Source: Callorhinchus milii (taxonomy: Eukaryota). Taken from it: a stretch of DNA of 64,000 nucleotides. The stretch covers positions 130,140,001-130,204,000 of the forward strand of contig NW_024704742.1 of assembly GCF_018977255.1 (NCBI RefSeq). Reading direction: 5' to 3'. Made by a program: the position numbers and the translations under genes. The notes under the pieces were generated by a model. The model saw nothing but the letters and a program-made list of their open reading frames with translations. It searched no databases and had not been told where the DNA came from. Of this stretch, positions 13,960 to 62,670 are shown piece after piece; the stretch's first letter is position 1, and each line of letters begins with the position of its first letter.

Positions 13960-16900
13960 GTAAGTTATCGTTTGTTTGTTTTCTGTGTAATAAAATAAGT
14001 TTTCTTTTGGTTACAGTTTTGTGTAAAGATGCTAACCTGTATCTTAGCTAAGCTAGTAGTGGTTTTATTTCATAATTTTTTGGGGAGGCTGTGTTGGGGG
14101 GCAGGGGGTAAGTGGGGTCTTGAAGCTAGATTTGTTCATCTCTTGCCACTCATCTCCTGTTAACCCTGCAAGCCAAAGCCCAACGGGTAGTGTGGTCCTA
14201 GCTGGACAAGCAGCAGGAAGCTTGCCCAATGGTGTTCTCAATGGCAAGCTATATGGTTATAGCTGGTTAAGCTCTAGTAGTACCCCATTGAACATTCCAA
14301 GCCTTGACTTTTGCCTGCTTGCTCCTAATACTCTCTGTACTTGGGTAAGCAGGTTGTGTCCCTCCAGGGATGGAGTGAGCATTCCAATACATGGGAATTT
14401 CCATGTTTAGGTGGAATCCTTGAAACTTTCTTTGATTTGAATTCTTAAGCACGGTGATGGGTTTTTGCACGTGTCAGCTGACTCCCCAAAAATGTTTGTT
14501 CACATTTTTGAGTGCCTTACGATGCAACCAAACCACAACTGTAACCCTCAAGTGTTGTTGCATGTAAATGGATCTCCCAAAATGTAATTTGTGCCCCTGT
14601 TCCATTAAACAGTGTCATTCAATGAACACTTTCTTTCCACTCCCTTTGTGCATATAAATGTCCCAACCCTGAGACTGTTTTTTATATTTCTCAGATGCTG
14701 AATGACCACGACACTGAGGATTTTCTAAACTCCATCATTGGTTCTTTTGAGGACGAGAGCCCTGCAATTCTCTCCTGGTCTCCAGTGGGGAGTGACAGTG
14801 GGATATCAGAAGACAATAATCACTTTGTCCAAGCAGACAGCCTGTCAGGGAGCGATGCTGCCCTGTCTGATAGTCCCTCATGTTATGATGTCATTGTTTC
14901 CGACCATAACTATTCACTTGTTCAGGATTCACAGCAGAATGCAGATTGTTTGTACAGTGTAAAGACTGAAACCCCAACAACAGAAACCGATATTTCAATT
15001 GATCTAGGTTAGTGCCTACTACATTATATGACAATTTTGCAATAATGTACACTTATATAGCAGGTTCCATGTTGGGGGAATGTACCAAAGTATTTTGCAG
15101 AGATTGAGCAGGAGCTTAAACTGGGAGGGAAGGGAGAGAAGAGAGATGACTGAAAGTGCAGTCAGAGCGGTAGGTCTTCAAGGTTGATTCGAAGGCTGAG
15201 AGGTAAGGTGAGTTCCGGAGTGAGGAGGCAATGTAGTCCCTCCCTTTTGACTGTTGAAGGAACAATTGTTCTTTTTTTCTGTATTTCAGGCTAAACTTGC
15301 TCTTCTTGTTTTCCCTTTCTCACTCCCATTCCTTGGCCTCCCTGGGGTTGTATAACAGTTGTAAAACTCCATTGTGATGGTGTGTCCGGAAGCCTGACAA
15401 TTTGGTGGGATTTATCCTGTCCTGTAGAACTTTCTTCTTATTTGATGATTGAGAGGTATTGGTGACTACTAAGGAGCCAGGCTCTGCCCTGTAGTGAAGG
15501 AGTGAGAGTTGACATACATTTGCCAAAAGAAAGTTCAATTATCATTCTCCATTCTGAATATTAAAAGACTGTAAGATGCCAGCATATAGTCATTTGTACA
15601 AAAGTTATTGTTTTTCAACCAAATGAATAGCACGTACCATTCCAGATCACTGCAAACTGGGAAGTCGTGTTTCAGGTTGTTCCACGAAACCTACTTTTAT
15701 TTCAAGACTTTCATTATGACAGTCGCACAGATTGTATCTAAATTAAGATAAACAATAAAAAAAAGCTTGGCAGTGTCATTTTTTTCTCCTGAACCCAGTG
15801 GGTTAAAATCTGAAGGAAGTATTTAGTTATGCACTTGGCATGTTTGCTGTCTGTTTTTAATGTTGTGATTATGAGCTGATCTGATGGTTATTTATATAGT
15901 ATTCTTTCTAGCCAACAGTGACTAAGTAAGCTCTTCTTAGTTGTGGGCAATGTATTTCAAATTGTTAAAATCCCCCAAGTTCATTTCCTTTTTTAAATTT
16001 GCCTAAAATCTTATGTTTAGTAATAGTTTTTTTTTAAAAGTTGTTTTCCTCCCCATTTAAATAAGTGTCACTGACATGCGATTTACTCATTTCCTTTCCT
16101 CTTAGACTGGGAGCCTGAGTTTTTGACGGAAAACTCACAAGTTGTGCCAACTAAAAATAGCACTGACCTTGTGAGCCTCACCATTGAAGATCTGCAGCAA
16201 TACAGTAAATTAAACCCAGTAAGTTTGCACTCTCTAACTTCAAATGAATATGTTTGATTCTGGCAAATACTGGGGATTGGTGGGTTGGAAGTAGGGGAGA
16301 TGGAAGTGGAGGAGATCATTTGTGTTCTCACAGAAGTGTGATGTTTATTTTCCTCTTGTTTGCTGGATTCCTCAACTCTTCCCTCCACAAGTTACAGACC
16401 GTTCAGAACTCTACAGCTCGGTCCTCTTCCGCACCAGGCTCCGTGCATTTTATTTGTTTGGGGGGCTTCTCTGAAGTGTACAACCGGCATTGTTTAGCCT
16501 TATTTAACCAATAGCCAAACACTTCTAGAAAGTGTTACCTTGTGTGATTATAGTGAGTTTTAAAAACACTCTACTCAGTGTGCTACTGGGAGAAATCTGC
16601 CTGTTGGGGAAAAGTTGTATTCAGTGGACTTTATTAATTCTCTGCTCTGTGAATATGATGGACTGCTCTGCTAAGAACAGTTTGCAGTTTGGTGGAGCAC
16701 CATGGAGTGCCATGGACTGATGGAACACAGTCATGCCTGTAATTCTTCAGTTTTCACCCCCCACCCCCTCACACACACATACACACAATATTCCATCAGC
16801 TGCTGGGATACTGAGAGTGGTTGGGGTGGGGGGGGGTCACATCTAGCATTCACCCCTCCCCCTCGTTCCCCAGGCACAGTTCCCAATCTGAGGTGTGTCA

Positions 16901-21409: not shown

Positions 21410-24012
21410 CACACACACTATACATCTATATATATATATAGATGTATAGTGTGTGTATATATGTGTGCTATATATAATGTATAATATATATATTTTATAT
21501 AATAATGGAACTGTGGAAGGCCAGACGTAGATATTCAATCAGTGTCAGGCAGACTATATAATAAATATTATTTTAAACTCCTATCTTGGTTGTGAGCATT
21601 CAAGTTATTACAGGTTTGTTTCTGTCAGACACTTTCACTTATTAACTTTGTTTTGAAATATTTGGCTTTTCCGTATAACCTTCCTGATTTCCCAAATTGT
21701 AGTGTGTGGAGGTTACAACAATGTGCAGCAGGTCCAAGTTTGCTTTTTTGTAAAGGGGGAATGAGACTGGAGAAACCTGCAAAGGGTGTATAGGGATTTG
21801 TAGGAGAGAGTGGGGATCTTTATGAATCTGCTAGAAGTTGGAGATAGTGGAGCTTGGTGAGGACAGTAGTGATTGGCACGTGAAGTTTAGTCAAGGTGAG
21901 GATACGAGCAGCTGAATTTTGGATGATCTGGAGGTTGCGAAGAGCTGGGGAGATGGGGAAGCCAAGCTGGAGGTAACAAACGCAGGGTTATAGATTTTTT
22001 TTGATCAGCTGGGTGTCTGACACATGTGAAAACCCATTGCCCTGTTTAAGAGTATTCAAACCAGAATTTCATGCATCACCTAATGGTTTCAACCTCACTG
22101 GGTGTGAAATTGGGACATAGGTGGATGATGTGATTAAGGTAAGTGTATGAAAGGGTTTGGGCGAAATGAAATGAAACAATCTGCTATGATCTACTGAATT
22201 GGTTGAACAAGCTTGACAGACTGAATGATTTCCTGTTTCTGAGCTGAACTTGATTTCTCACTGAAATCTGGGTGGGATGCTGTGTTCACAAGGCCTCATT
22301 TGTTCTGAAATTAAGGAGCAGCTTGAATGTCACCATTATGTCTCTGATGCCCCCAATTTAAATTTAGCCCTGTCATTTCAATCGTTTTGTCTTTATACGA
22401 TTTGTATGACCGGTGAAAGGTACATACAGTTATTCTACTATACAGTTATTCTACTATATATAGAGTCATATACTCTCGTATTCTAGTACATGAAGTAGTT
22501 TACTATTGAGAAAGAAGTACAATATAGTGTGCAAGCAAGAGAACCTGGGTTGATTCCCAGGCAGGGCAAAACCTTAGGCAAGTTTCCTTACTCCACACGC
22601 CTCTGTTTACATAACAGTAAGTAGGAACCCGATTGTTAGTCGATAGGCAAATCACTTTTTCGGAGGTGATAACCCCACCAAAAAGAAGTCACTTGATCCA
22701 TGACTGTTTGTGGGACGCTGCTGTGTACGACTGGCTGCCACATTTCGCCCACAAAATACGCAGTGAATCCACTTTATCTGTGAAGCACTTTGAGACATCT
22801 CAATGACGTGATTAGGTATCATATTAATGCAAGTTTTACTGTTATACACTTATCCTTTTTATGAAAATAAATCTTTTACAACAAAGAAGAGAGATGGGGA
22901 AGTGCAGCATCCATAACGTTTGCCACTCTTCAGTTTATTATTAATTATCCTTGTATTTGATATAGCGCCTTTCAGGTCAGGAAGTTTCAAAGCTCTTTAC
23001 AGGATACACTACAAAGTCAGTTGACTGCATTTCAACTGCAAATGTAACAGATAGTTTGGACACTGCAACGTCCATCAAACAGCCAATGGAATGGATGAGA
23101 AATTTTGTTTGCTGGTGAACAAATCACTGTTCTAAATTTCAGACTTGAAAACTGCAAAAGGTGCAATTTGTAAAACATTTTACAATCCTACTATTGTAGG
23201 TAGTTCATATTATCTACATAACTTCTGATTGTAGAACTGGAATAATACATTTCTAATTCAGAAGGATATTGTGGGTTAATACTTTCCCTTTTTTTATACG
23301 TCAGTTAGCACTCATTCTGGTGCCCTCCTCCCCTTAGGAGTGAGACATTTCAGATCAAGTGGAGAGGCCTGGAGTATGATGGAGGACCCCACTATTCAGC
23401 AACTGAGATTGGCATCCACTTTATTCTCTCACATTGATCCAAGCCTAGCAGTGACTAAGCAACTTTGCATTTGAGTGCTACCACCCATCTGTTGCAGTTA
23501 CAATTGTCCACCTTTTATTTTCAGTACAAATTGCTTTACACTAGCTATTCACAATTGCGTGGTGCTGTGTAAGTATACACTGTGACACTTGTTTCTATTT
23601 GTACTTCACAGTACTTTCCCGCACTCTGCTCGACACTGAGTCATCCCAAGTACGGATCATCCCAAATGACTACAATGCTGATCTGGATATTAACCCGGAG
23701 ACAATAGAAGAGAAACTGGCATTGGGTCAAGAGGTTCCGGAAAGCATCTTGTCAGGAGGACAGAACAGCACACCCGAGACAGCAAACTTAGCAAAGACGA
23801 CCTCTGCTGCAACATTAAGCAGTAATTTCTCCTCTGATACCGATGGAGTGGTAAAAGCTCCCATCCAAGATGATGTGAGCCTGGAAAGGATGGCTTCCAT
23901 AAACGAGAAGGTGGGCTTCGGTGCATCGGCAACAGTGGTGAACAAGCCAAACTGGACCGAGCATTCCACTACCGTGATCATTAAAACCCACCCACGCTCC
24001 GACGAAATGTAA
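13831..24012 (+). CDS. CREB3: CREB3/Luman-like ER-membrane bZIP transcription factor, 9 coding exons, 465 aa
   Basis: Exons 13831-13959, 14695-15007, 16106-16218, 17811-17903, 18644-18750, 19363-19431, 19896-19980, 21089-21176, 23612-24012 join in frame (1398 nt); b[22 protein letters not shown] helix, S1P site RTLL, HCF-1 motif DHNY. CREB3 preferred over CREB3L4 from the DHxY motif and FAM166B/FAM221B linkage. Confidence 0.88.
14695..15007 (+). CDS. CREB3: CREB3 coding exon 2
   Basis: TCTCAG|ATG; contains DSGISED and DHNYSL; G|GTTAGT. Confidence 0.9.
16106..16218 (+). CDS. CREB3: CREB3 coding exon 3
   Basis: [19 protein letters not shown]...SKLNP|GTAAGT; phase 1 to 0 fits neighbours. Confidence 0.82.
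17811..17903 (+). CDS. CREB3: CREB3 coding exon 4
   Basis: [37 protein letters not shown]. Confidence 0.93.
18644..18750 (+). CDS. CREB3: CREB3 coding exon 5 (basic region)
   Basis: [43 protein letters not shown]. Confidence 0.95.
19363..19431 (+). CDS. CREB3: CREB3 coding exon 6 (leucine zipper)
   Basis: [30 protein letters not shown]. Confidence 0.93.
19896..19980 (+). CDS. CREB3: CREB3 coding exon 7
   Basis: [34 protein letters not shown]. Confidence 0.93.
21089..21176 (+). CDS. CREB3: CREB3 coding exon 8 (transmembrane helix)
   Basis: [36 protein letters not shown]. Confidence 0.92.
21368..21503. repeat. (TG)n/(TA)n compound microsatellite
   Basis: Alternating purine-pyrimidine runs. 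Confidence 0.9.
23612..24012 (+). CDS. CREB3: CREB3 coding exon 9 (luminal domain)
   Basis: CACAG|TA; VLSRTLL (S1P RxxL) ... HPRSDEM*. Confidence 0.92.
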
Positions 24013-26123: not shown

Positions 26124-27497
26124 TCGTTCACAAAGGTAGTGAATATTTGTATTATTATCCATCTTTTGCACATAATTACTCCACAATCCACAGTTTTGCC
26201 TTGCCTTGCCTTGCTGGTAATCATTGCAATACCGTTCTGCTTTGTGGAAGTTTCAATTAGACAACTGGTTTCCGGAATTACAGCACAGCCCATGCCAGGT
26301 CTCAGAGCTGTCCATTTAGTCCCAATCCCCCTGCCATCTCCCCATACTCTTAATCAAATGAGGATTATTACAAAACAATACACACTTACATTTATATAAA
26401 GCCTTTCAAATCGGGAGGATGACCCAAGGCATTGGACCGTCTAAGGTTTGCACCCGAGCTTGGGGTGAAGATGTCCAAAAGCGCACATTAAAGTCTATAT
26501 ATTCCTTTTTCAAATATGTCTAATTTCCTTTTAAAATCTGTTCTGGATTCCGCATCAACTGCTTTTGGTACAGCATTATATATCCTAATAAATCCTGTTT
26601 CAAAAAAAAATCAAATTTTTTGGCAATCTTAAATTTATGCCCTCTATCTACACCAACCTGAGAAAATAGTGTGTCTCTACTTCTCAAAACCCCCAGATTA
26701 CAACAACATTTGTATAATTTTGTCTAAAAGAAAATTCTAAACCGCAGTTTGTATTTCTTTTTGGAACTTTGTAAAAAGCTCAAACTATCTGGTTTCCACA
26801 AATTTCATCAAGTACTTTAAAGTTCAGTTACAGCCTTGTAACTTTTTAAATTATAGAAATAAACTCCAAAATTCAAATTTATTTACCATAAAAAGAATAA
26901 TGCTCCAATTAAACCATTTGCAGGAAAACTTTAAGCACTTGCTTCTGAGGAATTTTTAATACTTTTTTCTATAGATGTTACTAACACCAACACCTTTAAT
27001 AATTTATGAAGTCCTATATTTGAGCTCTTTAAAATAAATGTGATGCGTACCCTGAGGGTGCCAGGTTCCATTGCCCTGCCTTTTCAGTTAGCTCACCTCA
27101 CCATGACAGAAATAAGTAGTGCAATTATTCAAAGTGGCGTGTTGGATGTAGAGAATATCTAACTTGGATCAATTGCATCTCTGTGATTGAACAGCTGGCA
27201 ACTTGACAGAGATTCTTCGAGGTTTGTTAGTACTTGTGGGAACCATTCCCCAACATGAGTCTTCTACTCTCAGGAGAGAGAGGAAACCCTCCAACATTTG
27301 CCAGCCCTTTCATTACTTATGTAGGTATTTGATTTAATAATATTAATAATTTAATAATAATAATCCTTGCATGTTATGTAACTCCTTTCGCATAGGATCA
27401 CTGTAAAGTGTAATGAATGTGTATTTCTAGGCAAATGTGGCAGCCTGTCTGTATTGCTTGTAGGTCAGTCACCTTGTGCGATTTAAATTCCAGTTAG

Positions 27498-27503
27498 TTT
27501 ATT
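27498..27503 (-). terminator. Candidate FAM166B poly(A) signal
   Basis: AATAAA on minus strand ~230 nt past the stop codon. Confidence 0.4.
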
Positions 27504-27730
27504 TTTCTGTCAGCCTATTTAAATCACATTTACAACAAACATTACCTTCACATTCCTTGTTTGTGCATTTTCTTTACACATAAAACGCCTGCAAAATCAT
27601 AAAGCAGTCTAATTAATTGTGAATTGTAAAAATACTGAATCTTCATAAGCTCCTAGTGCTTGATAGCTGAGTGAGAAGTGATCAAGTGATCAAGAAGTGA
27701 TCAAGCGGTTTGTCTCGTTGGTACTTGTGG

Positions 27731-27784
27731 TCAGTGTGTTGCGCTTATGGTCTTTCTAGCTGTGCCCAAATTGAAACTTGGTTT
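27731..27784 (-). CDS. FAM166B: FAM166B exon 6
   Basis: TTTTATTTACAG| acceptor; ancestral frame KFQFGHS*; current frame [17 protein letters not shown]. Confidence 0.72.
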   Translation of the reverse strand, partial: KPSFNLGTARKTISATH

Positions 27785-30700
27785 CTGTAAATAAAAGAAC
27801 ATTAACAGAATGTTGTTAACTTCATTACATGTTTTTTTTATATTCTGTAGTCTAGTATTGCAATACTGCATAAAATAATGCTTGGCAAGGTTCTTAAGGC
27901 TTGCTGGTATCTGTGGAACCATTTCACCACTTTGAGTGAGGGAGGAAACCCTCTCACATTCGCCAATCCTTCTCCAATAGCTTTTAGTCAAGTCAGTGGC
28001 TATAGTGGGTTGTCAAATAGATTCAGAAGGTTCAGTTCCCTATAATAATAATATAATAATAATAATCCTTGCATTTGATATAGCACTTTTCACATCTTCT
28101 AGACATCTCAAAGCGCTTCACAGAATAGACTGTAAAGTGAATTGACTATATTTGTGGGCAAAACGCGGCAGCCAATTGCACACAGCAGTGTCCCACAAAC
28201 AGTCTAATCTCTATTGAGTTACAATGATCTTAATGTGCATACACGAAGAGTGGGGAATAGGAGGGAAGGGAGCTTTTGTGACTTATAAACATTAGTACAA
28301 AGTCATTGGGCTGTAAGATCTGTTTGTGTGATGTATCATTCTATATAACTGGGACAGCAGTTAAGGTCCTGCAATTGATCTCAGTACCCTTTGGCTACAG
28401 ATCAGAAAATCAGCCAGCGTTTTCTGCCACTTACTGATCACCACTTAGTGGAAAATGCCTGGGTGTGGATGCTGTGTATAAGCTTGCCTCAATTGCCACT
28501 GTCTGTCTATAGACCTAACTATGAAGAATGACCATTTGGAGTTGGGGGGGGATATAATATGTGGAATTGTATCCCAGTCATTTCCCTCAGGAGAGGAAGA
28601 GGGAAATAAGTGAACAAATGTTAACTCAAACCAATATCAAGGTGCAATACTGTTTTACTGCTTCCACTACGATTGATGATCTCCCTGTTTTGGGCAGTTT
28701 CTTGCAGAGAACAGGGTTCAGGTATTGATTGCATTGTGTCAGCACTAGAAGTTTAGTCTTGTTTTGAATTCATTTCAGACAAGACAAGCCTCAGCCCATC
28801 TGACAGAGCACAAATGTCTGTTGACCTCATCTCTCTCAATGTGCATCTTGTGAGTTGATGAATTATCTTCAGTGGAGCAGTGATACCTATCATGGTGGAT
28901 GTTGGCATGTAATCCATTTTATAACAACAATTTGCATTTATATAGAGCCCTTCATGCAGGTTAACGTCTCGGAGTGCTTAAAATACAAATTAAAATTTAC
29001 ATTAATGTAGCGTTTTTCATGTCAAGATATCCAAAGGCACTCTTAATTTATTAGTATCCTATTCTGTACTACTAATGTAAATGTACAAGTGTTTAATGGG
29101 ACTCCTAAACTCTGTGTGTGGGAAGAGGGTGAGGGTAGGGTTGGGAAAGAGGCCAATTATACAAAATAAAACAGCTGCTGATGTGGAAGACCCATATTAC
29201 TGAAACATCCATGTATCATGTATCTTTATAACACAAAACAACTCAGGAACATCTTACCTGGTGCATAGACTGAATAGTGGGGCAGCACATCCCAGTCAGG
29301 GGACAGGCAGACTTGATCCTCGGTAGGCCTTCACCTTCTTTCAAAGAGTTTCCAACAGGAACTGGTGAAGTCTTTGATCTATTAAGCACCCGACTGAACT
29401 CGATCAGAGCTTTGTTGGTGATAATGGGGTAGCCAGCGCCAAACAGAAACTGTGCACGTGGAACAAACCCTCTGTATCCTGTGAGAAACAGTGGACTTAG
29501 TTTCTTGGCGCTTGTGAAACAACTGCACAGGCCATGTAAATACTCAACATATGATTTGCTTATTACAAAAAATCCCAATTTGTTTGTATAAAGACCCCGT
29601 AACAACAAACAAATATATTTGTAATAGCACCTTTCATGTTGGGAGGCATCCCAAGTTGCTGGACAGTCAAGAATTTGGACTCGAGCTGGGGATTGTGGTC
29701 AGGAGGGGTGGAGGGCAGGAGGCTGACCAAAGGCACGGTCAAAGAGGAGGCACTGAAGGAGGGAACAGAGGGGGCGAGGTGAATGGACTGTGGGATTGAG
29801 TTCCAAAGGATGAAAGGCTGAAGACCCGACCGCTGATGGTGTGGCGCGCGGGGGGGGACACGCAGGGGGTCAGAGTCCTCTGAATATCACTCCACTGACA
29901 TTTTGGTAATCAAACTTTTGAGGGTGTGTGATAAGGTAAATAATAATAGTAAATAATAAATGAGGAGAAACTATTTCCAGTCACCAGCGAATTAGTGAGC
30001 AGTTGATATACATGTAAAATCAGTAAAACAAAATTAAAAAATCACAAAACGATGAAGAAAGGCCCTTCACCATCTGATCCACCCACCCTACCGCCATCCC
30101 ATCGCTGCATCAAGCTGCTTTTTAAATGAGTCCAGTGTCCTGTCCAGTTGTTAATTAAGCCCTGCTTAAAGAAAAGCTTCCTGGTATCTGGTTGATACCA
30201 GAATTTGATTTACACACGGCGTTGTTAGGACTCTCCATCAAAAACAGTGGATGAAGCAGAATCCATGATTGCATTTGATAAGAAATTAGACATATTTAAT
30301 AATAATAATAATAATATTTACAGTGGAAGCCACTTAAGGTGGATACGTTGGAGCCGGCTGTTTTGTCCGGCTTAAGTGGCGTCCGGAGCAATCACAGTTC
30401 CCTTTCCGTCCAGCAAAGGAGCAGAGGAAGGCGCCTCCTCCCTCCCATTGCCGTTCCCATTGGATGGGAAAGGGACCATTTAGCGGTGGGCACTCCACCC
30501 ATTCACCAGCGGCTCCAGCTGTCAATCAATCATAATTTGACTCCTCCCATTCCCTCCCTTGTTTCTTCCCTGTTCCTCCGATCTCTCATTGATTGACAGC
30601 CCAGAGCCGCTTATGAATGGTTGGAGTCCGGTGTCAGTCAATCGCAATTTGACTTCTTCCATCTCCATTCTGGAACTGCTTGAGACACAGAAGGCTGAGT

Positions 30701-33700
30701 GAGTTGATGTAGTGAGGACCAACGCAGCATTTTGTCCCGATCAACTGGAACTTTGTCCGAATTGACAGATATATTTAAAACACGTAAGAGTTCAAATGTA
30801 TCGGGGCCGGGTATTTTGTCCAGTTTACCCAGCATCCAGCTGAAGAGTCCAGTTAAAGTGGCTTCCACTGTATTTGAAAAGGAAAAAATATAAAATGGGG
30901 AAAGGACAGAGGATTGGGAGTAAATGGATGCATTTTTCAGATAACCAACATAGAATTGATAGGCCAAAAGGAGAGGTAAATTTCTCTTATTCTATTGTTT
31001 CCAGCAACTTGGGACTTTCTTCCAACATGAAAAGCGCTATATAAGTGCAATTTGTCGTGGACAAATTATTTATTTTTGGAATACGTTTGAGTTCCACAAA
31101 TATACAGTACCTGGTGACGGTATCACCAAGTAAATTATTTACGGTCCAGAGCGTCACTTCAATACAATGCTGGGAGTGTGCTGCATTGTAAAAGGTGTCC
31201 TTCAGATGAGACCCTAAAACTGAGGACCCATCTGCCTGTTCAGGTGGACGTTAAAGGTTTAATGTCACTACTGTTCTTGGAGAAATGAAAGGGTTTTCTC
31301 CGGTTTCCAGGTCAATAGTCCTCTAGATGAAATTGGTCATTCACTTCATGGCGGTTTCTGGGGTATTGCTGTGTGCACATTAGCTACAGTGTTTGCCTAC
31401 AAATACATAGTCAATAAAATCCTGTGAACCTCTTTGAGATGTTTCAATGTTATGATAAGACATTATATCAAATGCAAAGATTATTATTATATTATTATTG
31501 CTTGCTTTGTGCCTTTCTCTACTCTTTCCTTCATTCGTTGAAGCAGAAGATTTTACACCACAAATTATGTAGGCTTGGAAAAAAGCCCTTCAGACATTCT
31601 AGATTACTCAGTGCAGCCTTGTTGAACGTAGTCAGAAATGGTGAGAAACAAATTCATTTCGTGAGTTAGCACAGAGTATAGTTTCCAAGGCTCATTTTCT
31701 AAATGCATGTCAGCAAACAATCAGGCATTCAGGTACTTGGTGTAAATTATTCATCGTGGAAAGGATAGCTTTGAAGTGAAAAGGTAACATGGGTTCAGGA
31801 AATCAAAACAAAATAGGGGGCGGAACCAAATACTCAAACTATTCAAAAAGAGAAGGCAGTTTCTACTGGTGTCCTGACCAACAATCGCTAGATAAAAAAT
31901 ATTCATCCATGGTTGTTTGGGGAACATTACTGTGTGCAAAACTGACTGCCACATTTGCCAACAAGTAGCCACTCACTACAACAACAACAACTTGGATTTA
32001 TGTAGCGCCCTCCATGCCAGACAACGTCTCAGATCGCTTCACAGTAATGGATCCCGGGGCACTACTCTCTACAGTGAACCTGTGAAGTGTTTTGAGTCAT
32101 CCTTCCTACATGAAAGGCACCATATAAAATCCAAGTATTATTATAATACCTATTTAAGTGATGGAAGGGCTGGCAAATGTTTAATTAGTCAAATTGATTT
32201 TCCATGCAAACATAAAGCTACAGCTCTGTGAGGTGAGAGCAGGGATGTATTTTATTGCCGATACTGACATCCTTGCTGGAAGCGGGAAGATATACTATCA
32301 AGTCTCTGATAGGCAGGTGTTGGAGAATTTCTGACATGAGGGTTAGAAAATACCTTTAAAAGGAGCCAGAGAAGGTGCTCCTAAGGTATGTGCCTGAGTT
32401 TAACAGGACAAATCAAAGCGTGGGCTTAGCTTAGTGCTTCCTATGGTGACACATCTTCACAATTTGTGACGACACAAACCTACATGTCTATCCAGTGGAG
32501 TCCTGTAGCTCAGCAGTTAGAGCACTCGCTTTGCAAACGAGACACCTGGGTTCAATTCCAGGCAGGGCGAAACCTTGGGCAAGTTTCCTTACTCCACACG
32601 CCTAATAATAATCCCTCCAAAATAAAACAATAATAAATTGGTCATTTTCAATCCACGACTGTTTGTGGACACTGCTGTGTGCAATTGGCTGCCGCGTTTC
32701 GCCCACAAATATACAGTCAATTCACTTTACAGTATTCTGTGAAGCGCTTTGAGACGTCTCGAAGACATGATAAGGCGCTATATCAAATGAAGGATTATTA
32801 TTAGAATCCTTGAATTTGATCATGTCATTGAGACGGCTCAAAGCGCTTCACAGGATATCCCGTAAAGTGGATTGACTGCGTACTTTGTGGGTAAAGCGTG
32901 GCAGCCAGTTGCGTAGAGCAGTGTCCTGCAAACAGCCATGGAATGAGTGACCGATTTTATTTGAGAGACCAATAACTCAACAAATATATAATGCTGCCTT
33001 ACATAGAGTGATACTACATGGAAACAGGCCATTCGATCCAATTAGAGCTCAAACAAAGATAGACCAACAATAGTAGTAAGCTATATTATATTCAAAATTA
33101 ACCTTGATCTCTCAGTCTCACCTGAGATAAAGTGTTTGTGGGGGTTTTCATTTGCCATTAGGTACGGAGAGCCCAGAGCTTTGTAGGAATAAGGTGAGTT
33201 GTAAGGAGGAATGCTTGTTCCCGTGGGTCTGAGAGGCATGCTGCACCTGACTGTTAGAAGCTGAAAGGAAAGAGGGAAATATTTAATACAGATTAAAAAC
33301 TAGTATAAGAGTACTGGACTGAGGAGAGCCCAACCCTCATAAATTACAGTCAAAAACTACAACCACAGGTGCTGTGCAAATGTGTTTGTACTCCTGTACC
33401 AATCACAATGCATTTCAATCATTCCTTTACACCTGAGAATGACACAATTTAATCATATCAATAATAATCATAATAATCCCTGCAATTGGCATAGCGCCTT
33501 ATTACGTCGAAAGCACGTCTCAAAGCGTTTCACAGGATTGACTGTGAAATGAAGTGGCCGTGTATTTGTTAAGAACATGGGAACAGGGATAGGCTATTTG
33601 ATCCATTAATCCCACTACGTCATTTTATTAGTTTGTGGCAGCTCTTTATTTTTCCAAATTCTATTTTTCTGCCTTTTCTCCACAGCACAAGTACTTTTCG

Positions 33701-36372
33701 AGCATCTACAGTGCAGCCATATTGACTTCTGGGTCATCAGGTCACCTTCTATGTCACTTCCCATACAATGTGCACAGAAAGTGACATTGGCAGCAAACTG
33801 ACAACTTGTAAATAAGTCATTTGTAGCCAAGAGCCAAGAGGCAAATGAAGGTGAACCAGCCAGATCTGCAGCTCGTAGGACCAAACATATTACTATTAGC
33901 TTATTATAAACATATTCTGGACAAAAAAGTAGCACAGATACAGTTACTTTTTTTTCTTGCTCTGTTCTTGCTTTGCGGTTCCCAGACTGCAGTGAGGTGA
34001 TGAGTTCCAGCTCCCGTTTCTTGGTAGCAATCTTGAGTTGTTCTCTCTCAAACTGCCTGATTGCATCTTTGCAGGTTTTCGTGTAGGTTTTCGAAAAATA
34101 GTGTTCCATGTTGGGAATGAATCCTGCACAGAGGAAACGGTCTTACCTTTGCAACATTATAGGTGTGTGATAGCAAACGCACTTTGTCAACTTAGCTCAG
34201 TGGTTAACGCTCACCTCTGGATTGGAAAGGTGTGGGTCAAGCTCTGATGTCAGGACTTAAGTACGTACCGGGAGAAGAGAGAATGCATTGGCTAATTGCA
34301 ACCAATCTCGAAGAAAGAGGGATCTACTCCAATCAACATGGATCGATGCACATTAACAAACCGATTCCTCCATCAAAGCCATTGTATTGATACGATTAAC
34401 CCATTGCGGTGAACTTTAATAACCTGTCATAAGCATTAATTTGATTTGATGAAATGTATAACTTTGATATGCATTTATTTGCTTGTCTTGTATTAAATTT
34501 TACTATTTAAGAGGAAATTTGTGTCAGTTGATACTTCACCACAGGGTCACAAATTTAATTAACCCTTTGCAGTACCAGAGGAGCAGTGCCATGAAAAGTG
34601 CCATCCTCTGGTTGAAATGTTAAACCAATGTGTCAACATTTCCCCTTTTTCCCCCTTCCAAAGTTGGAATCAATAAACCAACCTGTGTATCCGGGGATCA
34701 TTACGTCATTCAGTTTCTGGTCTGCCCAGCTGACTTTACAACTCCGGAGCTGATGGTTCGTTCCCTCATCAATGCTGGGAGCTGGTAAGTGGGTTGGCTG
34801 AAGAATTAATCGGCCAGAACGTGCTATCCCAGGATCTGTCAGCAGCTTAGAGGTCAACTTGCCATAGGATTGCCCCACACTGTACTTATACTGAGGACAA
34901 TAGCCTCCGTACCTAAAGAGATGTCCCAGGAACAGGGCAGCCATTATTCTTCATAAAAGTAACTTGAATATTTAGTTGAAGATCATGGAATCCAATACAA
35001 CTTTAGCTAACTGGACTGAAGAAGAGTTACCTTCAATAATATAGATATAACATTCACCAACGAGGGAGCAGAGAGGAACAGCACAAAACAGTTGTTTGGT
35101 CACTCAATCCACAACTGTTTGTGGGACACTGCTGTGTGCAATTGGCTGATGCGTTTCATCCACAAAATATACTGTCAATTCATTATACCGTATATTCTGT
35201 GAAGGTCTTTGAGACGACTCAATATTGAGAAAAGGCACTATATCAAATGTTAGGATTATGATTATTTATTATTGTCCCAGAAAGCATCAGTCAATCCCCA
35301 TCTTAACTACTGGGTCTTGTCACTTAATCGTAAGGAAATATATTATTGCACTCGAGAAATAGAGGTGATTAGCTATTTGTTATTTAAGCTCTAAGGAAAA
35401 TTAAGGAAGTTAGATAGGTGTAATGTGATTTCACCCCCGCTTATAAAATAGCCTATCAGCATTGACTGCCGAGACTCACATCTGAGGTAAATGAAATGTT
35501 TTTTTTGAGAGAAGCAAATTTCCGTGATAAAGCTTAGAGGACTAAAGGTAAATTCCAGAACTTTTTAAGTGAGAAAGTTCCAGAGTGATGATATGCCCTG
35601 TTTGATCCTTTTGTTTACAACACTTGTTGGATCCTTTTTAAGTTTTTTTTGAAGTCAGTCCACTTTACAATACATTTATTTAAATATATATTTTAATTTT
35701 AAAAAAATATATTGTGAATTAATATATTTAATTAATACATTTACACCATTAATATAGTTAATTAATATATTTACACCACTAATATATTTAATTCATATAT
35801 TTACACCCCTAATATACTTACAATGTTTTTAAACAGATTTTTTAAAGTCAATCTACTTTACAGTGTATCCTGTGAAGCACTTGAGACATGAATAAGGCGC
35901 TATGTCAAATGCAAGGATTATTATTATTGATAATATTATTTTTAACAATGAACCAAGTAACGAACACACATTCTCCCTCTCCCTCTCTCTCTGCAGTCTT
36001 TCAAAGTGTCAGGAGTTGTTGCCATGGGAAAGCCAAACACAGCGTTGTATCTGAGTAGACTGAGCAGAATCGTTTTAACCTTTAAATGTTGGAATAAGAA
36101 AAGACACATTTCTTTTTTTTATATACAAAATGGGAAATGGAAGGTGTTTGCTGTGTGCCGGAGCGTACAGATTGCACTCAATACATTGCACAAGGCAGTA
36201 AATATACAGAGATATATATTATATGTATTTTTTATATATATATACATATATATAAACGTATTCGAAACGTGGCTCTCTAGCTAGACTGGGACGATCTCGC
36301 TTACCCGGGGATGTAGTGAGGATCCGGAGTCATTAGTATTGAGCTGATCTTCGGTGGGAATTGCTTTGCCAT
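27731..36372 (-). CDS. FAM166B: FAM166B/CIMIP2B ciliary microtubule inner protein, 6 exons, 295 aa, frameshifted C-terminus
   Basis: Exons 36372-36305, 34912-34683, 34123-33948, 33260-33122, 29478-29258, 27784-27731 (888 nt); motifs [52 protein letters not shown]. Confidence 0.88.
29258..29478 (-). CDS. FAM166B: FAM166B exon 5 (contains apparent 1-nt deletion)
   Basis: [27 protein letters not shown]...; CAG|GTAAGA. Confidence 0.88.
30321..30870. mobile_element. Tc1/mariner (Tigger/pogo-like) non-autonomous MITE, 550 bp
   Basis: TIR CAGTGGAAGCCACTT (15 bp perfect, ~23 bp imperfect); TA duplication at 30319-30320 and 30871-30872. Confidence 0.88.
32497..32802 (+). mobile_element. tRNA-derived SINE, full length
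   Basis: GGAGTCCTGTAGCTCAG head through (ATT)n tail. Confidence 0.9.
33122..33260 (-). CDS. FAM166B: FAM166B exon 4
   Basis: [10 protein letters not shown]...[24 protein letters not shown]. Confidence 0.88.
33948..34123 (-). CDS. FAM166B: FAM166B exon 3
   Basis: [24 protein letters not shown]...EQEKK|GTAACT. Confidence 0.88.
34683..34912 (-). CDS. FAM166B: FAM166B exon 2
   Basis: [27 protein letters not shown]...MIPGYT; G|GT. Confidence 0.92.
35731..35820. repeat. 30-bp AT-rich minisatellite, 3 copies
   Basis: ATTAATATATTTACACCACTAATATATTTA-like unit. Confidence 0.85.
36018..36031. promoter_or_regulatory. RFX X-box-like site in FAM166B intron 1
   Basis: GTTGCCATGGGAAA versus consensus GTTGCCATGGCAAC; paralogous GTTGCCATAGGAAT at 36862-36875. 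Confidence 0.5.
36305..36372 (-). CDS. FAM166B: FAM166B exon 1
   Basis: [30 protein letters not shown]. Confidence 0.88.
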
Positions 36373-51896: not shown

Positions 51897-54800
51897 ACAA
51901 CAACAACAACAACAACAAGATTCCATTTATAAAGCGCCTTTCACGTCAGGAGGACGTCCCAAGGCGCTGCACAGTTGGGTCATGACCCGAGCAGGGGGGA
52001 AATGGTCAGGGGAGGGGAGGGAGCGAGGAGGGGGGAAATGGTCAGGGTGAGGGGAGGGATGGGAGGGAGCGAGAAGGGGGAAGAGAGTCGAGAGGGGAGC
52101 TGAAGGCTCGGTCAAAGAGAAAGGTTTTGAGACCGGCCTTGAAGGAGGAGAGGGAGGAAGCAAGGCGAAGGCACTGGGGATAGAGTTCCAGAGCCTCGGG
52201 GCTGAGAGGCTGAAGGCCCGACCACCAATGGTAGGGCGATTGGGGCGGGGGACGTGGAGCAGACCGGAGCCGGAGGAACGGAGGGTACGGGCAGGTAGGT
52301 AGGGGGATAGTAGGTTGGAGAGGTAGGAGGGAGCAAGGCCGTGAATGGCCTTGTAGGTGAGGATGAGGATCTTGAAATCAATCCTCTGGGGGATGGGGAG
52401 CCAGTGGAGGCGAGCGAGGGTGGGAGTGATGTGGTCCCGAAGCCTGGTGCGGGACAGTACACGAGCTGCAGAGTTCTGAATGACCTGCAGCTTGTGGAGG
52501 GAGGTGGCGGGAAGGCCGACGAGGAGAGAGTTCCCATAGTCCAGCCTTGAGGTGACAAAGGCGTGAACCAGGGTTTCAGCAGCGTGAGGGGTGAGGTAAT
52601 GGCGTAGTCTGGCGATGTTCCGGAGGTGATGGAAGGCGGTGCCAGTTGTGGTGCGGATGTGAGGGAGAAAGGACAGCTCAGGGTCGAACAAAACGCCGAG
52701 GTTCCTGACTGGCTTTGAGAGGTGGAGAGTGCAGCCTTGGATGCTGATGGTGTCGGCGCCTGAGGTGCGGAGGCGCTGACGTGAGCCAATCAGGAGGGCC
52801 TCGGTTTTTCGCACGTTGAGCTGAAGAAAGTTGTCTCTCGTCCAGGACTCGATGTCGGACAGGCAGGCTGTCAGGACATCGGTGGTCGTGGAGTTGAGAG
52901 TAGAGGAGGAAAGGTAGAGTTGGGTGTCATCCGCATACATGTGGAAGTTAACTCCATGTCTGCGGATGATGTCACCAAGGGGGAGCATATAGAGGGTGAA
53001 GAGGAGGGGACCGAGGACAGAGCCCTGAGGGACACCACATGAGACAGTACGGGGGGTGGAGGAGAAGCCATTCGTCGAGACAAAGTGAAGACGGTGAGAA
53101 AGGTACGACCTAAACCACTCAAGGACAGTGCCTTGAAGGTTGAGGTGGGAGGACAAGCGGTGGAGTAGGATAGCGTGGTCGACCGTATCGAATGCTGCCG
53201 ATAGGTCGAGGAGGACGAGGAGGCAGAGGGAGCCCTGGTCACAGATGGTCAGGATATCATTGGTGACCTTGACCAGGGCAGTTTCTGTGCTATGGGCAGC
53301 ACGGAAACCTGACTGAAGGGGTTCGAAAAGAGAATGGGTGGAAAGGAAAGAGCGCAGTTGGGAGGCGACAACTCTTTCCAAGACCTTGGAGAGAAAGGGG
53401 AGGTTGGAGATGGGCCGGTAGCTTGATAGCTGCGACGCATCAAGGGAGGGTTTTTTCAGGGTGGGCGTGATGGTGGCAGTTTTTAATGGAATGGGGACAG
53501 AGCCAGAGGAGAGGGACAGGTTGATGATGTCAGTGATATGTGGGGCAAGAAAGTGGAGCTGGGAGATAAGGAGTGGAGTGGGGATGGGGTCAAGGGAGCA
53601 GGTGGTTGGTTTTAGGGATAGGATGAGTTCAGTGACAGAGGGTGGGGAAACGGGTACGAAAGTGTGTAGGGGAGGATGGGTAGGAGTCGGAGTGTGGGAG
53701 TGAGGGGGTGGGGGGTTGGTGGATGTTGGAGGGGAAGTGACCGCGGAGCGGATTCCCTTGATCTTGGATTCAAGGAAATCCAGCATCTCCTCGCAGTGAA
53801 GGTTGGAGGAGATGACCTGCGCGGGGTGGCGGGGGGACGGAGGAGTCGGGTTGTGGTGGAAAACAGTAGCCTGGGGTTGTTCTTCGCCTCCAGGATTATC
53901 CTGGAGTAGAAGGACGACTTGGCCAAGGCTAGAGTGGAGCGGTAAATTTTGAGGAGGTCCAGCCAGATTTGTCGGTGGACCGTTAGGCCAGATTTGACAT
54001 TCAGCAGCCCGCACCTGGCTTTTCAGTGAGCGGAGGTGTGTGGTGTACCAGGGGGAGGAGCGGGAGTAGGAGACAGTGCGGGAAGTGATGGGGGCAAGAG
54101 TATCGAGTGTGGAGGGGAGGGTATTGTGGAGGAGGGAGAGAGGAGAAGAGGGGTCGGTGAGGGTTGAAGGCCAGAGGGAGAGGAGTTCAGAGGACTCCAA
54201 GGCATCGGTTAGGGATTGTGGGGGTAACTTCTTCCAAGGGCGGTAGAAGATGGTGGTGGGTCTGGTGGAGGTGGGGAGGGGGGTGGAGGTGGTGAAGGAG
54301 ATGAAGTAGTGGTCAGAGATGGCCTTGTCGGTAATAGTGACATCCGAGACACTGAGGCCCCGGGTGATCACCAAATCGAGTGGGTGGCCGTGACTGTGAG
54401 TGGGGGAGTTTATGTGTAAGGAGAGGTTGAGTGAGGAGAGCAGGGAAGAGAAGTCTGTGGAGATGGAGCAGGAGGGGGTGAAGTGTAGGTTAAAGTCGCC
54501 CAGGATGATGAGGCGATCAGAGCAGAGGCAAAGAGATGTGAGGAGTGTTGAAATGTCAGAGATGAAGGTGGGAGAGGTTTTAGGGGGCCGGTAGAGGAGG
54601 AGGATTTTAAGGGAGAGGAATGAGGGGTGGGAGAGGGTGAGGTGCTCAAAGGAGGGGAAAGAGCCAGTGGAGTAGGGGATAGGGCAAGTGGTGTCCTTGA
54701 GATAAGGGCAACACCACCGCCACGGCGGTTGGGGCGGGGGATGTGGTGGGAGGTGTAGCCGGGTGGCGTGGCCTCCGTGAGGGGGAAGGTGTCGCCTGGG

Positions 54801-55612
54801 GTGAGCCAGGTTTCTGTTAAGGCCATGATATCAACGTTCTCATCAAGGATGAGATCGTTGATGACCAGGGCCTTGTTGCAGAGGGAGCGGACATTTTGCA
54901 GTCCGATGTGGAGGGAGCGGTTGACAGAAGGGTGTGTGGGAGGGGAGGGGGTCCAGGTTGTGAGGCAGGGGTGGGGGGAATGGGGATGAGGGAGGAGAGG
55001 TTGACTCCCCGGGTCTGTGTCCGGGGTGGGTGGCGAGTGTGGTGGGGAATGGGGCAGTCGGTGTGGCTGCTGCTGGACAGCCAACGCCGAGTGCCACGGT
55101 GAGCCCGGCGGAGGATTCCCAGGCTGGAACAGAGGGAGGTTGTGGGAGGGTCAAGTGGGGATAGAAGACGAGAGGGACGGAGAGAGAGGAGGAGAGAGCG
55201 GGAGAGATGCAGAGGGGGGAGGGTTTGGGGGGAGAGAGGAGGGGGCGGGAGGGAGGGGGTGAGGGGGCTCGGGTCAAAGCGGCAGCCATAGTGCGCACGC
55301 GGGGACCGGGAGCGAGCGGTCAGGTGGATGGCATTATCCCGTAGATTGGGGCAGCGAACCCAACAGGACCATAGTGGGCTCTGATGTGAGCCCTGGGGGG
55401 GGGGGGGCGCGCAGAGGTTTTTTTTTTTTTTTTTTTTTCGCGCACGCACGCACCTGAAAACTAATCTATGACGTCGCAGTTCCCCCGCTCCGCCCCCACA
55501 CCGCCCCTCCCCCCCCCCCCCCGGGGCTGAACTCGCTCCGGCGTCGAGTTTAAGTACCTGGGTCAGTAGGCCCAGGCTCCTCCCCGCGCTGTCCTGCCGC
55601 CCCTCCCTCTAG
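51897..55612 (-). mobile_element. Near full-length L2-clade LINE (APE endonuclease + RT, several frameshifts, no ORF1 seen)
   Basis: Endonuclease motifs QNVRSL, LTETWL, GGGVAL, GDFN, SDH; RT motifs [42 protein letters not shown]; 3' stem-loop and (TTG)n tail; GC-rich 5' UTR. Confidence 0.95.
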
Positions 55613-59408: not shown

Positions 59409-62400
59409 CTACAAAAAAAACGTAAAATTAAGCTAAAATTAATGGGTTAAGTTTAGAAATACAGTACTGTTTATTAGCGACGATTGAGAAGTCACAGGAG
59501 GAACAGGGATTTGATCTACTCGTATAACTGTGTTGTAATTGAATAGAAATGCACAGTCTCTACATTTTACAGTATAAATCCTATCAGCATGCTTTGTCAA
59601 CACTATGTCAAACGCAAGGATTGTCATACTGTAGCTCTTTCTTAAAATCCCAGTGTGAGGTGGGGGAGAAGACTGGGTAACAGATTGTATCAGAGGGACT
59701 AGTCACAGGAGTGGTTCTTAGAACTCTGTGACGGTGTCTGAGGATAGACTTGTGTCACATCCAAACAACCACAGAGGGGGATCTACGGAGCACATTCGTT
59801 GAAAACACAACGAAAGCCTCTGTCTGGGCTCATGTGTCAAAAATTGACACTTGGGCGAGGTAGTAGAATAGCTAGGGAACATAAACAACAACAACAACAA
59901 CAACTTGCATTTATATAGGGGCAGTCTCTCGGAGCGCTTAACAGTGGCGGAGCCTGAATGGATGAACTAATGGCCTATATCCCAGTGCACTATAAGTAGA
60001 GGCAACCCTAGTTATAGGCAAACTAGGCAACTGCCTTGGGCAGCAGATTTCTGTGAGAAGCGATGTTGTTTTGAATGCTCGACCGACCAAATAGAGTCAG
60101 GCAGGGCTGCAGGGAGTTAAATTCATCTGTCTTAAGTTAAAGCTATTGAACTTCTAAGGGGTGATAGGAGGGGCGGAACATTGAGGTTTTCATGTGCTCC
60201 GGGACGCTACCCCACGTGAAGGGTGCTATATAAATGCAAGTTGTTGTTGTTTTTGCTGTAGGGTAGCAGATTGTCTTGAGTGGCTTCCGACTATAAGAGT
60301 CTGAGGTCTAGAGGCTGGGTTTCTGAGTACAGTACACTCTCTAGGTGTGCCTGGGAGGAAAGAACCACAATAGATTTTAATGCAAACAACATATGCTTGT
60401 AATTCCCCTCATCAGATTGGCAGAAGATGAAAAAGCAGTTGATGTCATGGAAAATCCCAGCAAAAAGAAAATTCTATCATTCATTTCGCCCACAAATATA
60501 GAGTCAATTCACTTTACAGTCTATTCTGTGAAGTGCTTTGAGACGTCTAGAAGACGTGAAAAGCACTATATCAAATGCAATTTATTATTATTATATTTGA
60601 CTCCCCATCGTTCAGCAAATTTGAATACTGTATACACTTGACAAAGGCCAAACCGTTTGAAAACCGTAATGGTCCAACTGCAATCTAATATATCTGGTTA
60701 AACTCCAGATGAACTCCATCTGAACAACATATGTGGTCCCCAAGCTATTTGGGAAATCGGAAAATTTCTGAGCGACCCCAGGAATGGTACCCAAGCTCCC
60801 CTGTGAAAGTGGCTCCCGATTTAAAAAGAAATACATAGGCAGTTGGCGAGGGTTAGAGGGGGCTCAGCACCCCCATCTTCCCCCTACACACACTCCCAAA
60901 TCTACCAGCTTTTTCCATGAAAACCCTGAGTCCTTTCAGGGAGACAGTCTGCCCCTGTCCCTCAACTCTTAGCCAATCTGTGCCTAAACTTTCTGAGCTT
61001 TGATAAGCAGGGTACTGGCTCTGGGGGAACATGCTACGCTCCACACCGGACAGATATAATTTGGAGTCCTGTAGCTCAGTGGTTAGAGCACTCGCTTTGC
61101 AAGTGAGAGACCTGAGTTCAATTCCAGACAGGGCGAAACCTTGGGCAAGTTTCCTTCTCCACACGTCTAATAATAATCCCTCCAAAACAAAAAACAATAA
61201 TAAATTGGTCATTTTCAATCTACGACTGTTTGTGGGACACTGCTGTGCGCAATTGGCTGCCGCGTTCGCCCACAAATATACAGTCAATTCACTTTACAGT
61301 GTGTTCTGTGAAGTGCTTTGGGACGTCCTCCCGACGTGAAAAGCGCTATATCAAATGCAAGGATTATTATTATTATATAATTCTAGTTTCATTCTAGTTT
61401 ATCTAGTTCATTGTATTTTCATAAATATATTTGAAACTCTCAATAGTTTGGTTTGGTTATTCTTAAAATGGGTTTCCACATATGTCAAACACACGTCTGA
61501 CCCCAAAAAATTACATGATCTAATTATCAATGTTGCTAGATAATAGAAGCTGCAAAGACACTTGAAACAACGTATAAAGACTATAATCTAATACTATTGT
61601 TTGAATAAGAGTTTCATTGCATATTAACATCACTAAACTTTGCCCTCGATTTTATGATCACATCTTCACATGGAATCCCAAAGCGTAGTGGTAAGTAGGA
61701 ACCCGGCTGTTAGTTGATTGGCGGATTGCTTACTAGTGGTAATAAACCCTCAAAAACATTTTGGTCATTTAATCCACGACTGTTTGTGGCATATTGCTCT
61801 ATGGAATTAGTTGCTGAGTTTCATCCAAAAAATACACAATCAATTAACTTTACAGTATAATCTGTGAAGCACTTAGAGTCGGTCTCAACGACGTGATAAA
61901 GTGCTATATCAAATGCAAGGATTATTGTTATTATCATTATAATCTAATAGCATCGTTAATAAGAGTTTAATTGCACAATAATATCAATAAGCTTTGCTCT
62001 TCAATTTTATGATCACACTTTTATCCTCCCTGTTGCATTGCTGGGACCTGTTAATACAGCAGTTTTTCTACTTCTCTAAAGTAACGTACCCAGTTAGTGT
62101 TGTTCTGCGGCTGTGCTTTCTTGAACTGCATCAGACACTCGGCGATACTTTGGGACAGCAGTTCCACTTCTTTCTGCTCTACAGATGGAGTCATCACCCG
62201 ATCTGCTACACAAGATACAAATACAAGGAAAGCCACTAACCGCCCACAGCAATACTTTCTTGGTTCATTCAGTTCAGATGCAACTCTAGAAATTATCCGG
62301 GCACCATCTTCAACGCTTAAAAGATTCATTCCAGATATATCCTTGAGAATGGATTCTGAGATCTTAGAGATGACTTCCTCTAAACTTCCCATCTCTTTAC

Positions 62401-62557
62401 AGGAGGATTCAATAACTTGGCTTTTTCCCTGGCTATGATCCATTAAAAGCTTTGTCATATCACTGCATCGAGCCCGGATTTCATCATCAGACAAGTCGAC
62501 TGGGATGGAATGAAGCCCTTTCAGAATCTCTATCATTATCTGAGGTCGGGTAACCAT
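59343..62557 (-). CDS. Divergent Bcl-2-family protein with C-terminal tail anchor, 2 coding exons, 177 aa
   Basis: Exon 62557-62090 (Kozak GACATGG; ISRVASEL..CCGRLVAFLVFVSCVA BH1-like; W|GTACGT at the conserved BH2 intron position) plus exon 59408-59343 (TTTTTTTTGTAG|MNIAIASGFLFMFGTVLLKLL*). Confidence 0.75.
61063..61376 (+). mobile_element. tRNA-derived SINE, full length (young subfamily)
   Basis: Near-identical to the 37621 copy. Confidence 0.93.
62090..62557 (-). CDS. Bcl-2-like coding exon 1 (156 codons)
   Basis: Non-repeat helical ORF, BH1-like motif, phase-0 donor after Trp156. Confidence 0.8.
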
Positions 62558-62670
62558 GTCTTAGCTTTGTAACGTAGTTGCCTGAAGTGTGAATGATCCT
62601 TTGGTAGATTTTATTTGAACCCTGTTACTAACCCTGTTGATAACCATGCATATAACTCTTTATCATCCAT

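Follow-up and report, generated by a model that had tools for sequence, protein, structure and literature searches.

The window analysed here is a stretch of 64,000 nucleotides of the Callorhinchus milii genome (contig NW_024704742.1, positions 130,140,001 to 130,204,000; positions below are those of the window). It holds FAM166B (CIMIP2B) on the minus strand, as six coding exons for a protein of 295 residues (Table 1). Every intron runs from GT to AG and the translation of the six exons is identical to XP_007895357.1, the RefSeq isoform X1 (295 aa). In isoform X2 (XP_007895358.1, 213 aa) exon 5 is skipped and the protein ends at the TAG at 27758-27756. The exon 2 translation has 100% identity to the C. 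milii protein named FAM166B, and the family model PF10629 (CMI2B-like) matches the C. milii protein in three stretches at 92.4 bits against a curated cut-off of 21.6. In a sequence search CIMIP2B proteins were its top matches (among the best 120 of 205), those of sharks and rays having 55-63% identity over the aligned part, and a shark orthologue compared with PDB chains matched FAM166B at an E value of 1e-53, FAM166A at 4e-19 and FAM166C at 7e-4. The gene is taken as the orthologue of FAM166B by name and sequence similarity rather than by a tree. Three PYG motifs are found, at residues 24, 98 and 206, and because this departs from the layout of four PYG-type repeats that is usual in vertebrate members the protein appears as a variant and not as a typical member.

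Table 1. FAM166B of C. milii and the features of its frameshifted end (window positions; X2 to X6, sequencing runs).
Feature	Positions	Strand	Basis
Exon 1, coding part, ATG at 36372; begins PYG repeat 1	36305..36372	-	RefSeq X1 match; run X6 contig over 36304-36450
Exon 2, 230 nt; remainder of repeat 1, beginning of repeat 2	34683..34912	-	spliced contigs, X5 record 17 and X6 record 26
Exon 3, 176 nt; remainder of repeat 2, long helix	33948..34123	-	gene model and run contigs
Exon 4, 139 nt; linker, beginning of repeat 3	33122..33260	-	X6 record 26
Exon 5, 221 nt, AG/GT ends; remainder of repeat 3, then linker, frameshift and the initial 14 residues of new tail	29258..29478	-	gene model and contigs
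Net -1 frameshift, best-scoring single break (G4 run; C4 on coding strand)	29299..29302	-	break scan; gapless in all four runs
Exon 6, coding part; final 17 tail residues and TGA	27731..27784	-	junction 29258>27784 in X5 record 17
Old-frame remnant, decayed, of repeat 4 (second half) and of the ancestral C-terminus; ends at TGA 27692-27690	27690..27784	-	frame reading, column comparison
Old-frame TAG, polymorphic; TAC allele gives R287T in the new frame	27756..27758	-	run contigs
3' UTR, AATAAA at 27503-27498	27350..27730	-	intron-free in spliced contig down to 27350, the end of the compared stretch

Several other features were seen in the window. About 400-450 bases comprising the start of intron 1 and the exon 1 donor are duplicated just upstream of exon 1 (37095-36700 and 36310-35870 on the minus strand, 81% column identity). 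Each duplicate has a half-X-box-like site (36872-36862 and 36028-36018), putatively for RFX, which would fit a ciliary gene. On the plus strand, the open frames at 14626-15012 and 23545-24012 presumably belong, as exons, to a CREB3-type gene that runs towards FAM166B; a Pfam search of the two frames gave no match. On the minus strand, a 169-codon open frame at 62051-62560 has a weak match to the Bcl-2 family (E 8e-4, below the curated cut-off), and one of 967 codons at 51927-54830 with endonuclease and reverse-transcriptase-like motifs is, we assume, a LINE element.

The end of the gene can be read in two frames. Exon 5 is entered in phase 1 and left in phase 0, and the old, shifted frame would require an exit in phase 1. 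The gene model confirms the length of 221 nt, the coordinates and the frames that the original prediction had given for this region. The in-register frame is open through the splice between exons 5 and 6 to the TGA at 27733-27731, and the old frame has a 10-residue stretch resembling repeat 4 at the end of exon 5 and continues in exon 6 as KFQFGHS before the TAG at 27758-27756. Since the old frame aligns with shark repeat 4 without a gap and scores 20.1 bits on a hidden Markov model (HMM) of that repeat, its resemblance is not due to chance; the in-register tail has no match to the same model. The predicted loss of the terminal PYG-type repeat and its replacement by a tail of about 30 residues are likewise borne out: a net -1 frameshift at 90% of the protein length follows 264 open codons and leads into 31 new residues, giving 295 residues in all as against 304-310 in most sharks and rays. 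When single breaks were placed along the region and scored against 11 elasmobranch proteins, the best position was 29299 (score 57.2), with placements from 29311 to 29290 near to it (50.0-54.8). The G4 run at 29299-29302, near which the missing base had been suspected, is thus the best-scoring and the best candidate site, but it is not a proven one.

To examine the break in sequencing data, contig sets of four runs (X2, X3, X5 and X6, from three studies) out of 14 matching runs were compared with the window. Logan contigs collapse heterozygous sites and run contigs are presence data only; "fixed" therefore denotes here presence in 4 of 4 contig sets and in the window. X5 record 17 and X6 record 26 were treated as cDNA solely because they skip the introns at the exon ends. 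Contigs cross the break in all four runs (X2, 29265-29751; X3, 28928-29746; X5 and X6, 29258-29477), and each is gapless over 29299-29302, so that the check called for at 29295-29305 upholds the frameshift at the level of contigs. X5 record 17 is a spliced contig of 1353 nt that runs from exon 2 to exon 6 and has the expected junction 29258>27784 at its positions 795/796; exon 4 has no listed row in it, but 140 unlisted letters fit that exon. The frameshift is found both in DNA and in a spliced RNA contig. At 27756 and 29267 the alleles of X3 and X5 differ from those of the window, so these runs are not copies of its haplotype, yet they have the same frameshift. The frameshift is real and not an error.

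The stop in the old frame fared differently. At 27756-27758 the TAG was present in X2 and X6, as predicted, but X3 and X5 have TAC, so the stop is not fixed but segregates, and the argument that two lesions speak against a sequencing error does not hold in that form. The decay of the old frame, described below, is a stronger argument against error than the TAG because the old frame keeps few conserved columns while the sequence upstream keeps nearly all; the segregating TAG would rather indicate that the old frame has ceased to matter. Three SNPs lie in the tail, and none of them is synonymous in the old frame. In the new frame those at 29267 and 27743 are synonymous and the one at 27756 (R287T) is nonsynonymous; two synonymous of three has a chance of 0.16 under neutrality. 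In X5 the tail has 3 SNPs in 99 nt compared with 2 in 579 and 1 in 381 elsewhere (p 0.02-0.03), a post hoc comparison on too few sites to be used. The SNP at 29267 was considered as damage to an invariant tyrosine, and this was rejected since sharks carry either Y or H there. Among the differences listed, the runs also showed a V-to-F change at 29356 in X5, which falls in the linker that follows repeat 3, before the break, and a synonymous change at 34876 in X2, X3 and X5. In X3 a short tandem repeat of the 3' UTR is shorter by 16 bases (27688-27704), which removes the old-frame TGA at 27692-27690; X3 also has clustered differences in intron 2 (34360-34403), with 22 other letters and 6 gaps over a contig of 1557 nt, which suggest a divergent haplotype.

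The distribution of repeat 4 in the family was surveyed with an HMM built from 25 panel proteins and a threshold of 45 bits. The set of 145 proteins (P0001-P0145), which includes isoforms and the best 120 of 205 search matches, extends to Nematostella, and 135 of the 145 reached the threshold, or 135 of the 143 outside C. milii. The ten that did not were the two C. milii isoforms, three isoforms of Mobula, three isoforms of lacertids, one Labeo model and one Merluccius model (37 bits). Genomic loss was rejected for the lacertids, as other lacertid isoforms carry repeat 4, and convergent genomic loss is not claimed for Mobula, as M. birostris has an isoform with repeat 4. The three Mobula isoforms (P0043, P0054 and P0135) end early inside repeat 4, and the M. 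birostris form with repeat 4 (P0134) is four residues shorter there than those of other rays. This may hint that constraint on repeat 4 is relaxed in Mobula as well, a second lineage of cartilaginous fishes. In C. milii the loss is an ordinary domain loss in one lineage. No sequence of another chimaera occurred among 37 matches, the best 120 of 205 matches, short proteins and 57 unnamed cluster representatives, which is weak evidence of absence.

An alignment with shark and ray orthologues (11 elasmobranchs), which the original prediction had proposed as a check, shows a conserved head and a decayed repeat 4. A column was counted as conserved when it was so in at least 80% of 23 jawed-vertebrate proteins, and the old frame was read with an X at the break. 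Upstream of the break C. milii keeps 74 of 78 such columns; downstream, where the old frame is read, it keeps 10 of 23 (Fisher p 2e-7), with 13 of the 23 altered and five of six conserved glycines lost; panel members keep 19-23 of 23-24 downstream columns. A second consensus was drawn from bony vertebrates and lamprey, with sharks excluded. Repeats 1-3 of C. milii keep 23/24, 14/18 and 18/23 columns, inside or at the top of the elasmobranch range (22-23, 10-14 and 16-20), and repeat 4 keeps 12/27 compared with 21-25 in the elasmobranchs. The amount of change was estimated by likelihood with ancestral codons summed over the panel amino acids, a measure that is anchored on proteins rather than on shark DNA and is not dN/dS. 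It came to about 0.3 substitutions per site in the old frame (0.16-0.58 over settings) and 0-0.08 in repeats 1-3; the 8 codons past the new stop gave 0.5, with a wide interval.

The head has no disabling lesion: residues 1-264 are open and the splice sites are normal. When neutral drift of the head was simulated at 0.15, 0.2 and 0.3 substitutions per site, 20, 7 and 0 of 1500 runs were free of stops, and no simulation (1500 per setting) kept more than 65 of the 74 columns. Because neutral drift never reproduced the conservation of the head, the gene would not have been dead while the tail decayed, and a protein of three repeats has likely been maintained by selection.

Purifying selection in the new frame would be expected to shift change towards wobble positions, since the -1 shift turns old first positions into wobble and old second positions into first. 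Over 27 tail codons, with ancestral codons guessed from amino acids, change was 0.5 at new first positions and 0.22 at wobble; another estimate gave 0.48 and 0.24, an excess that is not significant (2dlnL 1.7). The log-likelihood of the tail was -81.4 under neutrality and -82.9, -84.7 and -86.6 with constraint of 0.5, 0.3 and 0.2, so that mild constraint lies 1.5 units below neutrality and the stronger settings 3.3 and 5.2 units. Strong purifying selection on the tail in its new frame is thus disfavoured relative to neutrality, mild constraint may still act, and the tail is likely neutral, unselected filler. No relative of the tail was found in three sequence searches (including the best 120 of 205 matches). 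In the ESM Atlas, residues 260-295 had one feature match of 0.76 to the same family, a value too low to be reliable and one that a shifted frame would be expected to give, and structure matches with a TM score of 0.41 or less, giving no lead to a family. AlphaFold2 models the tail without helix and with pLDDT below 50, but the intact repeat 4 of a shark is modelled likewise, so this does not discriminate.

The explanation that we consider probable is that a net loss of one base near 29299 replaced repeat 4 with a tail of 31 residues that is neutral filler, and that a microtubule inner protein of three repeats survives. FAM166B is described as a lumenal protein of the A-tubule in mammalian respiratory doublets (PMC8595878, PMC10973386), in which a PYG repeat is a loop and a short helix whose conserved tyrosine and proline contact two adjacent tubulins, the number of repeats varying among family members (PMC10973386). 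In mammalian sperm FAM166A is reported to replace FAM166B (bioRxiv 10.1101/2022.09.29.510157, PMC11779644), and docking of Tetrahymena FAM166B is reported to need RIB72A (PMC10105768). For C. milii the sequence of events would begin with the loss near 29299, common to the four runs compared, which puts the new tail in the place of repeat 4. The stop lies in the last exon of the spliced transcript, and a stop in the last exon escapes nonsense-mediated decay (NMD) under the exon-junction rule. The position of the stop was confirmed in the spliced contig and the frameshifted mRNA, as originally proposed, would for that reason avoid NMD and be translated. Repeats 1-3 would still dock on adjacent tubulins within the A-tubule lumen, by analogy with mammalian FAM166B (PMC10973386), and the new tail would hang free and disordered. 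To judge from sequence, the protein of 295 residues is predicted to be made and to enter cilia.

Other explanations were weighed against this one. A sequencing or assembly error in a homopolymer is so improbable that it can in practice be set aside: the break does lie at a run of four bases and the first C. milii assembly relied on 454 reads (PMC3964593), but contigs from three studies are gapless there in 4 of 4 runs and 13 further conserved columns are altered in the old frame. It is quite unlikely that the gene is a transcribed pseudogene, or is becoming one, with the protein killed or weakened by the loss of repeat 4, although early pseudogenisation was the alternative named in the original prediction. 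The loss should be costly because nearly all family members have the repeat (135 of 143 homologues other than those of C. milii, including the best 120 of 205 matches), and PMC3868571 lists FAM166B as a gene for which people carry loss-of-function variants in the homozygous state, so that it may be dispensable. Pseudogenisation is disfavoured, however, because the head was conserved at the level of sharks while the old-frame tail drifted by about 0.3 substitutions per site, which the neutral simulations fail to reproduce; exons 1-5 before the break are moreover without stop or frameshift and the introns keep GT and AG. Conservation of the head may be compatible with a very recent loss of function, and nothing indicates such a recent death.

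We regard it as very improbable that the working product is another form which uses the old frame, be it the exon-5-skipped isoform X2, use of an internal donor, or ribosomal frameshifting. Isoform X2 does read exon 6 in the old frame directly after exon 4, KFQFGHS is well kept, both ends of exon 5 are break points of run X6 contigs, as would fit a skip, and a phase-1 GT is present at 29334. Among the junctions listed for the runs, a listing crowded by repeat elements, none joined exons 4 and 6. Isoform X2 nevertheless lacks repeat 3 and never includes the proline-tyrosine-glycine part of repeat 4, and its stop is polymorphic, a point that is new here, so that its end differs between haplotypes. 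The conserved repeat 3 of exon 5 also implies that the form with exon 5 is what selection sees, and with five of six conserved glycines gone a slip back into the old frame would not restore the repeat. Recruitment of the tail to a new function under selection, for example through a new contact made inside the doublet lumen or as a site of cysteine-based modification, is unlikely. With change of about 0.3 substitutions per site, the 31 codons of the new frame are still without a stop, two of the three tail SNPs are synonymous in it, and the fast change, higher at first positions than at wobble though not significantly, could be positive selection. Against this, strong purifying selection fits worse than neutrality, R287T alters the tail, its Cys-Cys pair would be ancestral M-L-P codons read in the shifted frame, and the searches gave neither a relative nor a family lead; the shift described for euAP3 came with few other changes (PMC1513400) and that of C. 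milii with many. The gain of a functional part, the other half of what had been predicted, is accordingly not supported, as the tests show no constraint on the tail. A bolder version is decidedly unlikely, namely that the frameshift is as old as the living chimaeras and common to all of them, with a tail kept functional that remodels the A-tubule lumen and gives a different footprint in the 48-nm repeat.

A three-repeat protein with a neutral tail would have a long history. Of the chordates that PMC3964593 compares, none has a neutral rate as low as that of C. milii, and a shark mutation rate of 7e-10 per base per generation is given in PMC10587355. In PMC11521621 the living Callorhinchus go back to a common ancestor of about 15 Ma, and the age of crown holocephalans varies between analyses (173-245 Ma). 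To reach 0.16 substitutions per site in 15 Myr would require 1e-8 per year, and relaxation would for that reason very likely predate the Callorhinchus crown; at an assumed 1e-9 per year it would be at least 160 Myr old. The loss is very likely old, older than the living Callorhinchus species, though the dating is rough, no usable neutral branch length for C. milii having been found, and the frameshift is possibly common to other chimaeras. Selection on repeat 4 may have been relaxed by the frameshift itself or already before it.

The sampled proteins keep repeat 4 from cnidarians to mammals, and one vertebrate lineage has apparently been without it for long though it retains repeats 1-3, which makes the gene a natural deletion experiment. 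It suggests that PYG repeats are additive, partly redundant anchors, and predicts that FAM166B truncated at repeat 4 would still decorate doublet microtubules. The case has a modest bearing on late truncating variants in human CIMIP2B, and it marks the elephant shark, a common stand-in for the ancestral jawed vertebrate, as the derived one for FAM166B. In the literature searched, most subscription journals being outside its coverage, the loss in Callorhinchus is undescribed; the sequence itself is already in RefSeq, where the names of XP_007895357.1 and XP_007895358.1 are silent on the lost repeat and the frameshift.

Compared with the chains named FAM166B in PDB entries 7UNG, 7RRO, 8TO0 and 9CPC, the C. 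milii protein shares repeats 1-3 but not repeat 4 and the conserved C-terminal segment. Predicted proteins of three repeats are also found in two species of Mobula, but as M. birostris has the isoform with repeat 4 as well, the shorter forms look like a product of splicing, unlike the genomic frameshift of C. milii. A fixed frameshift in a last domain is a known kind of change and not a new mechanism. The euAP3 motif of eudicot APETALA3, as described in PMC1513400, came with few accompanying changes and is conserved across its clade, whereas the C. milii tail appears heavily drifted and constraint on it is unseen; what the two cases have in common is the loss of a single nucleotide by which a conserved C-terminal motif was moved into a new reading frame.
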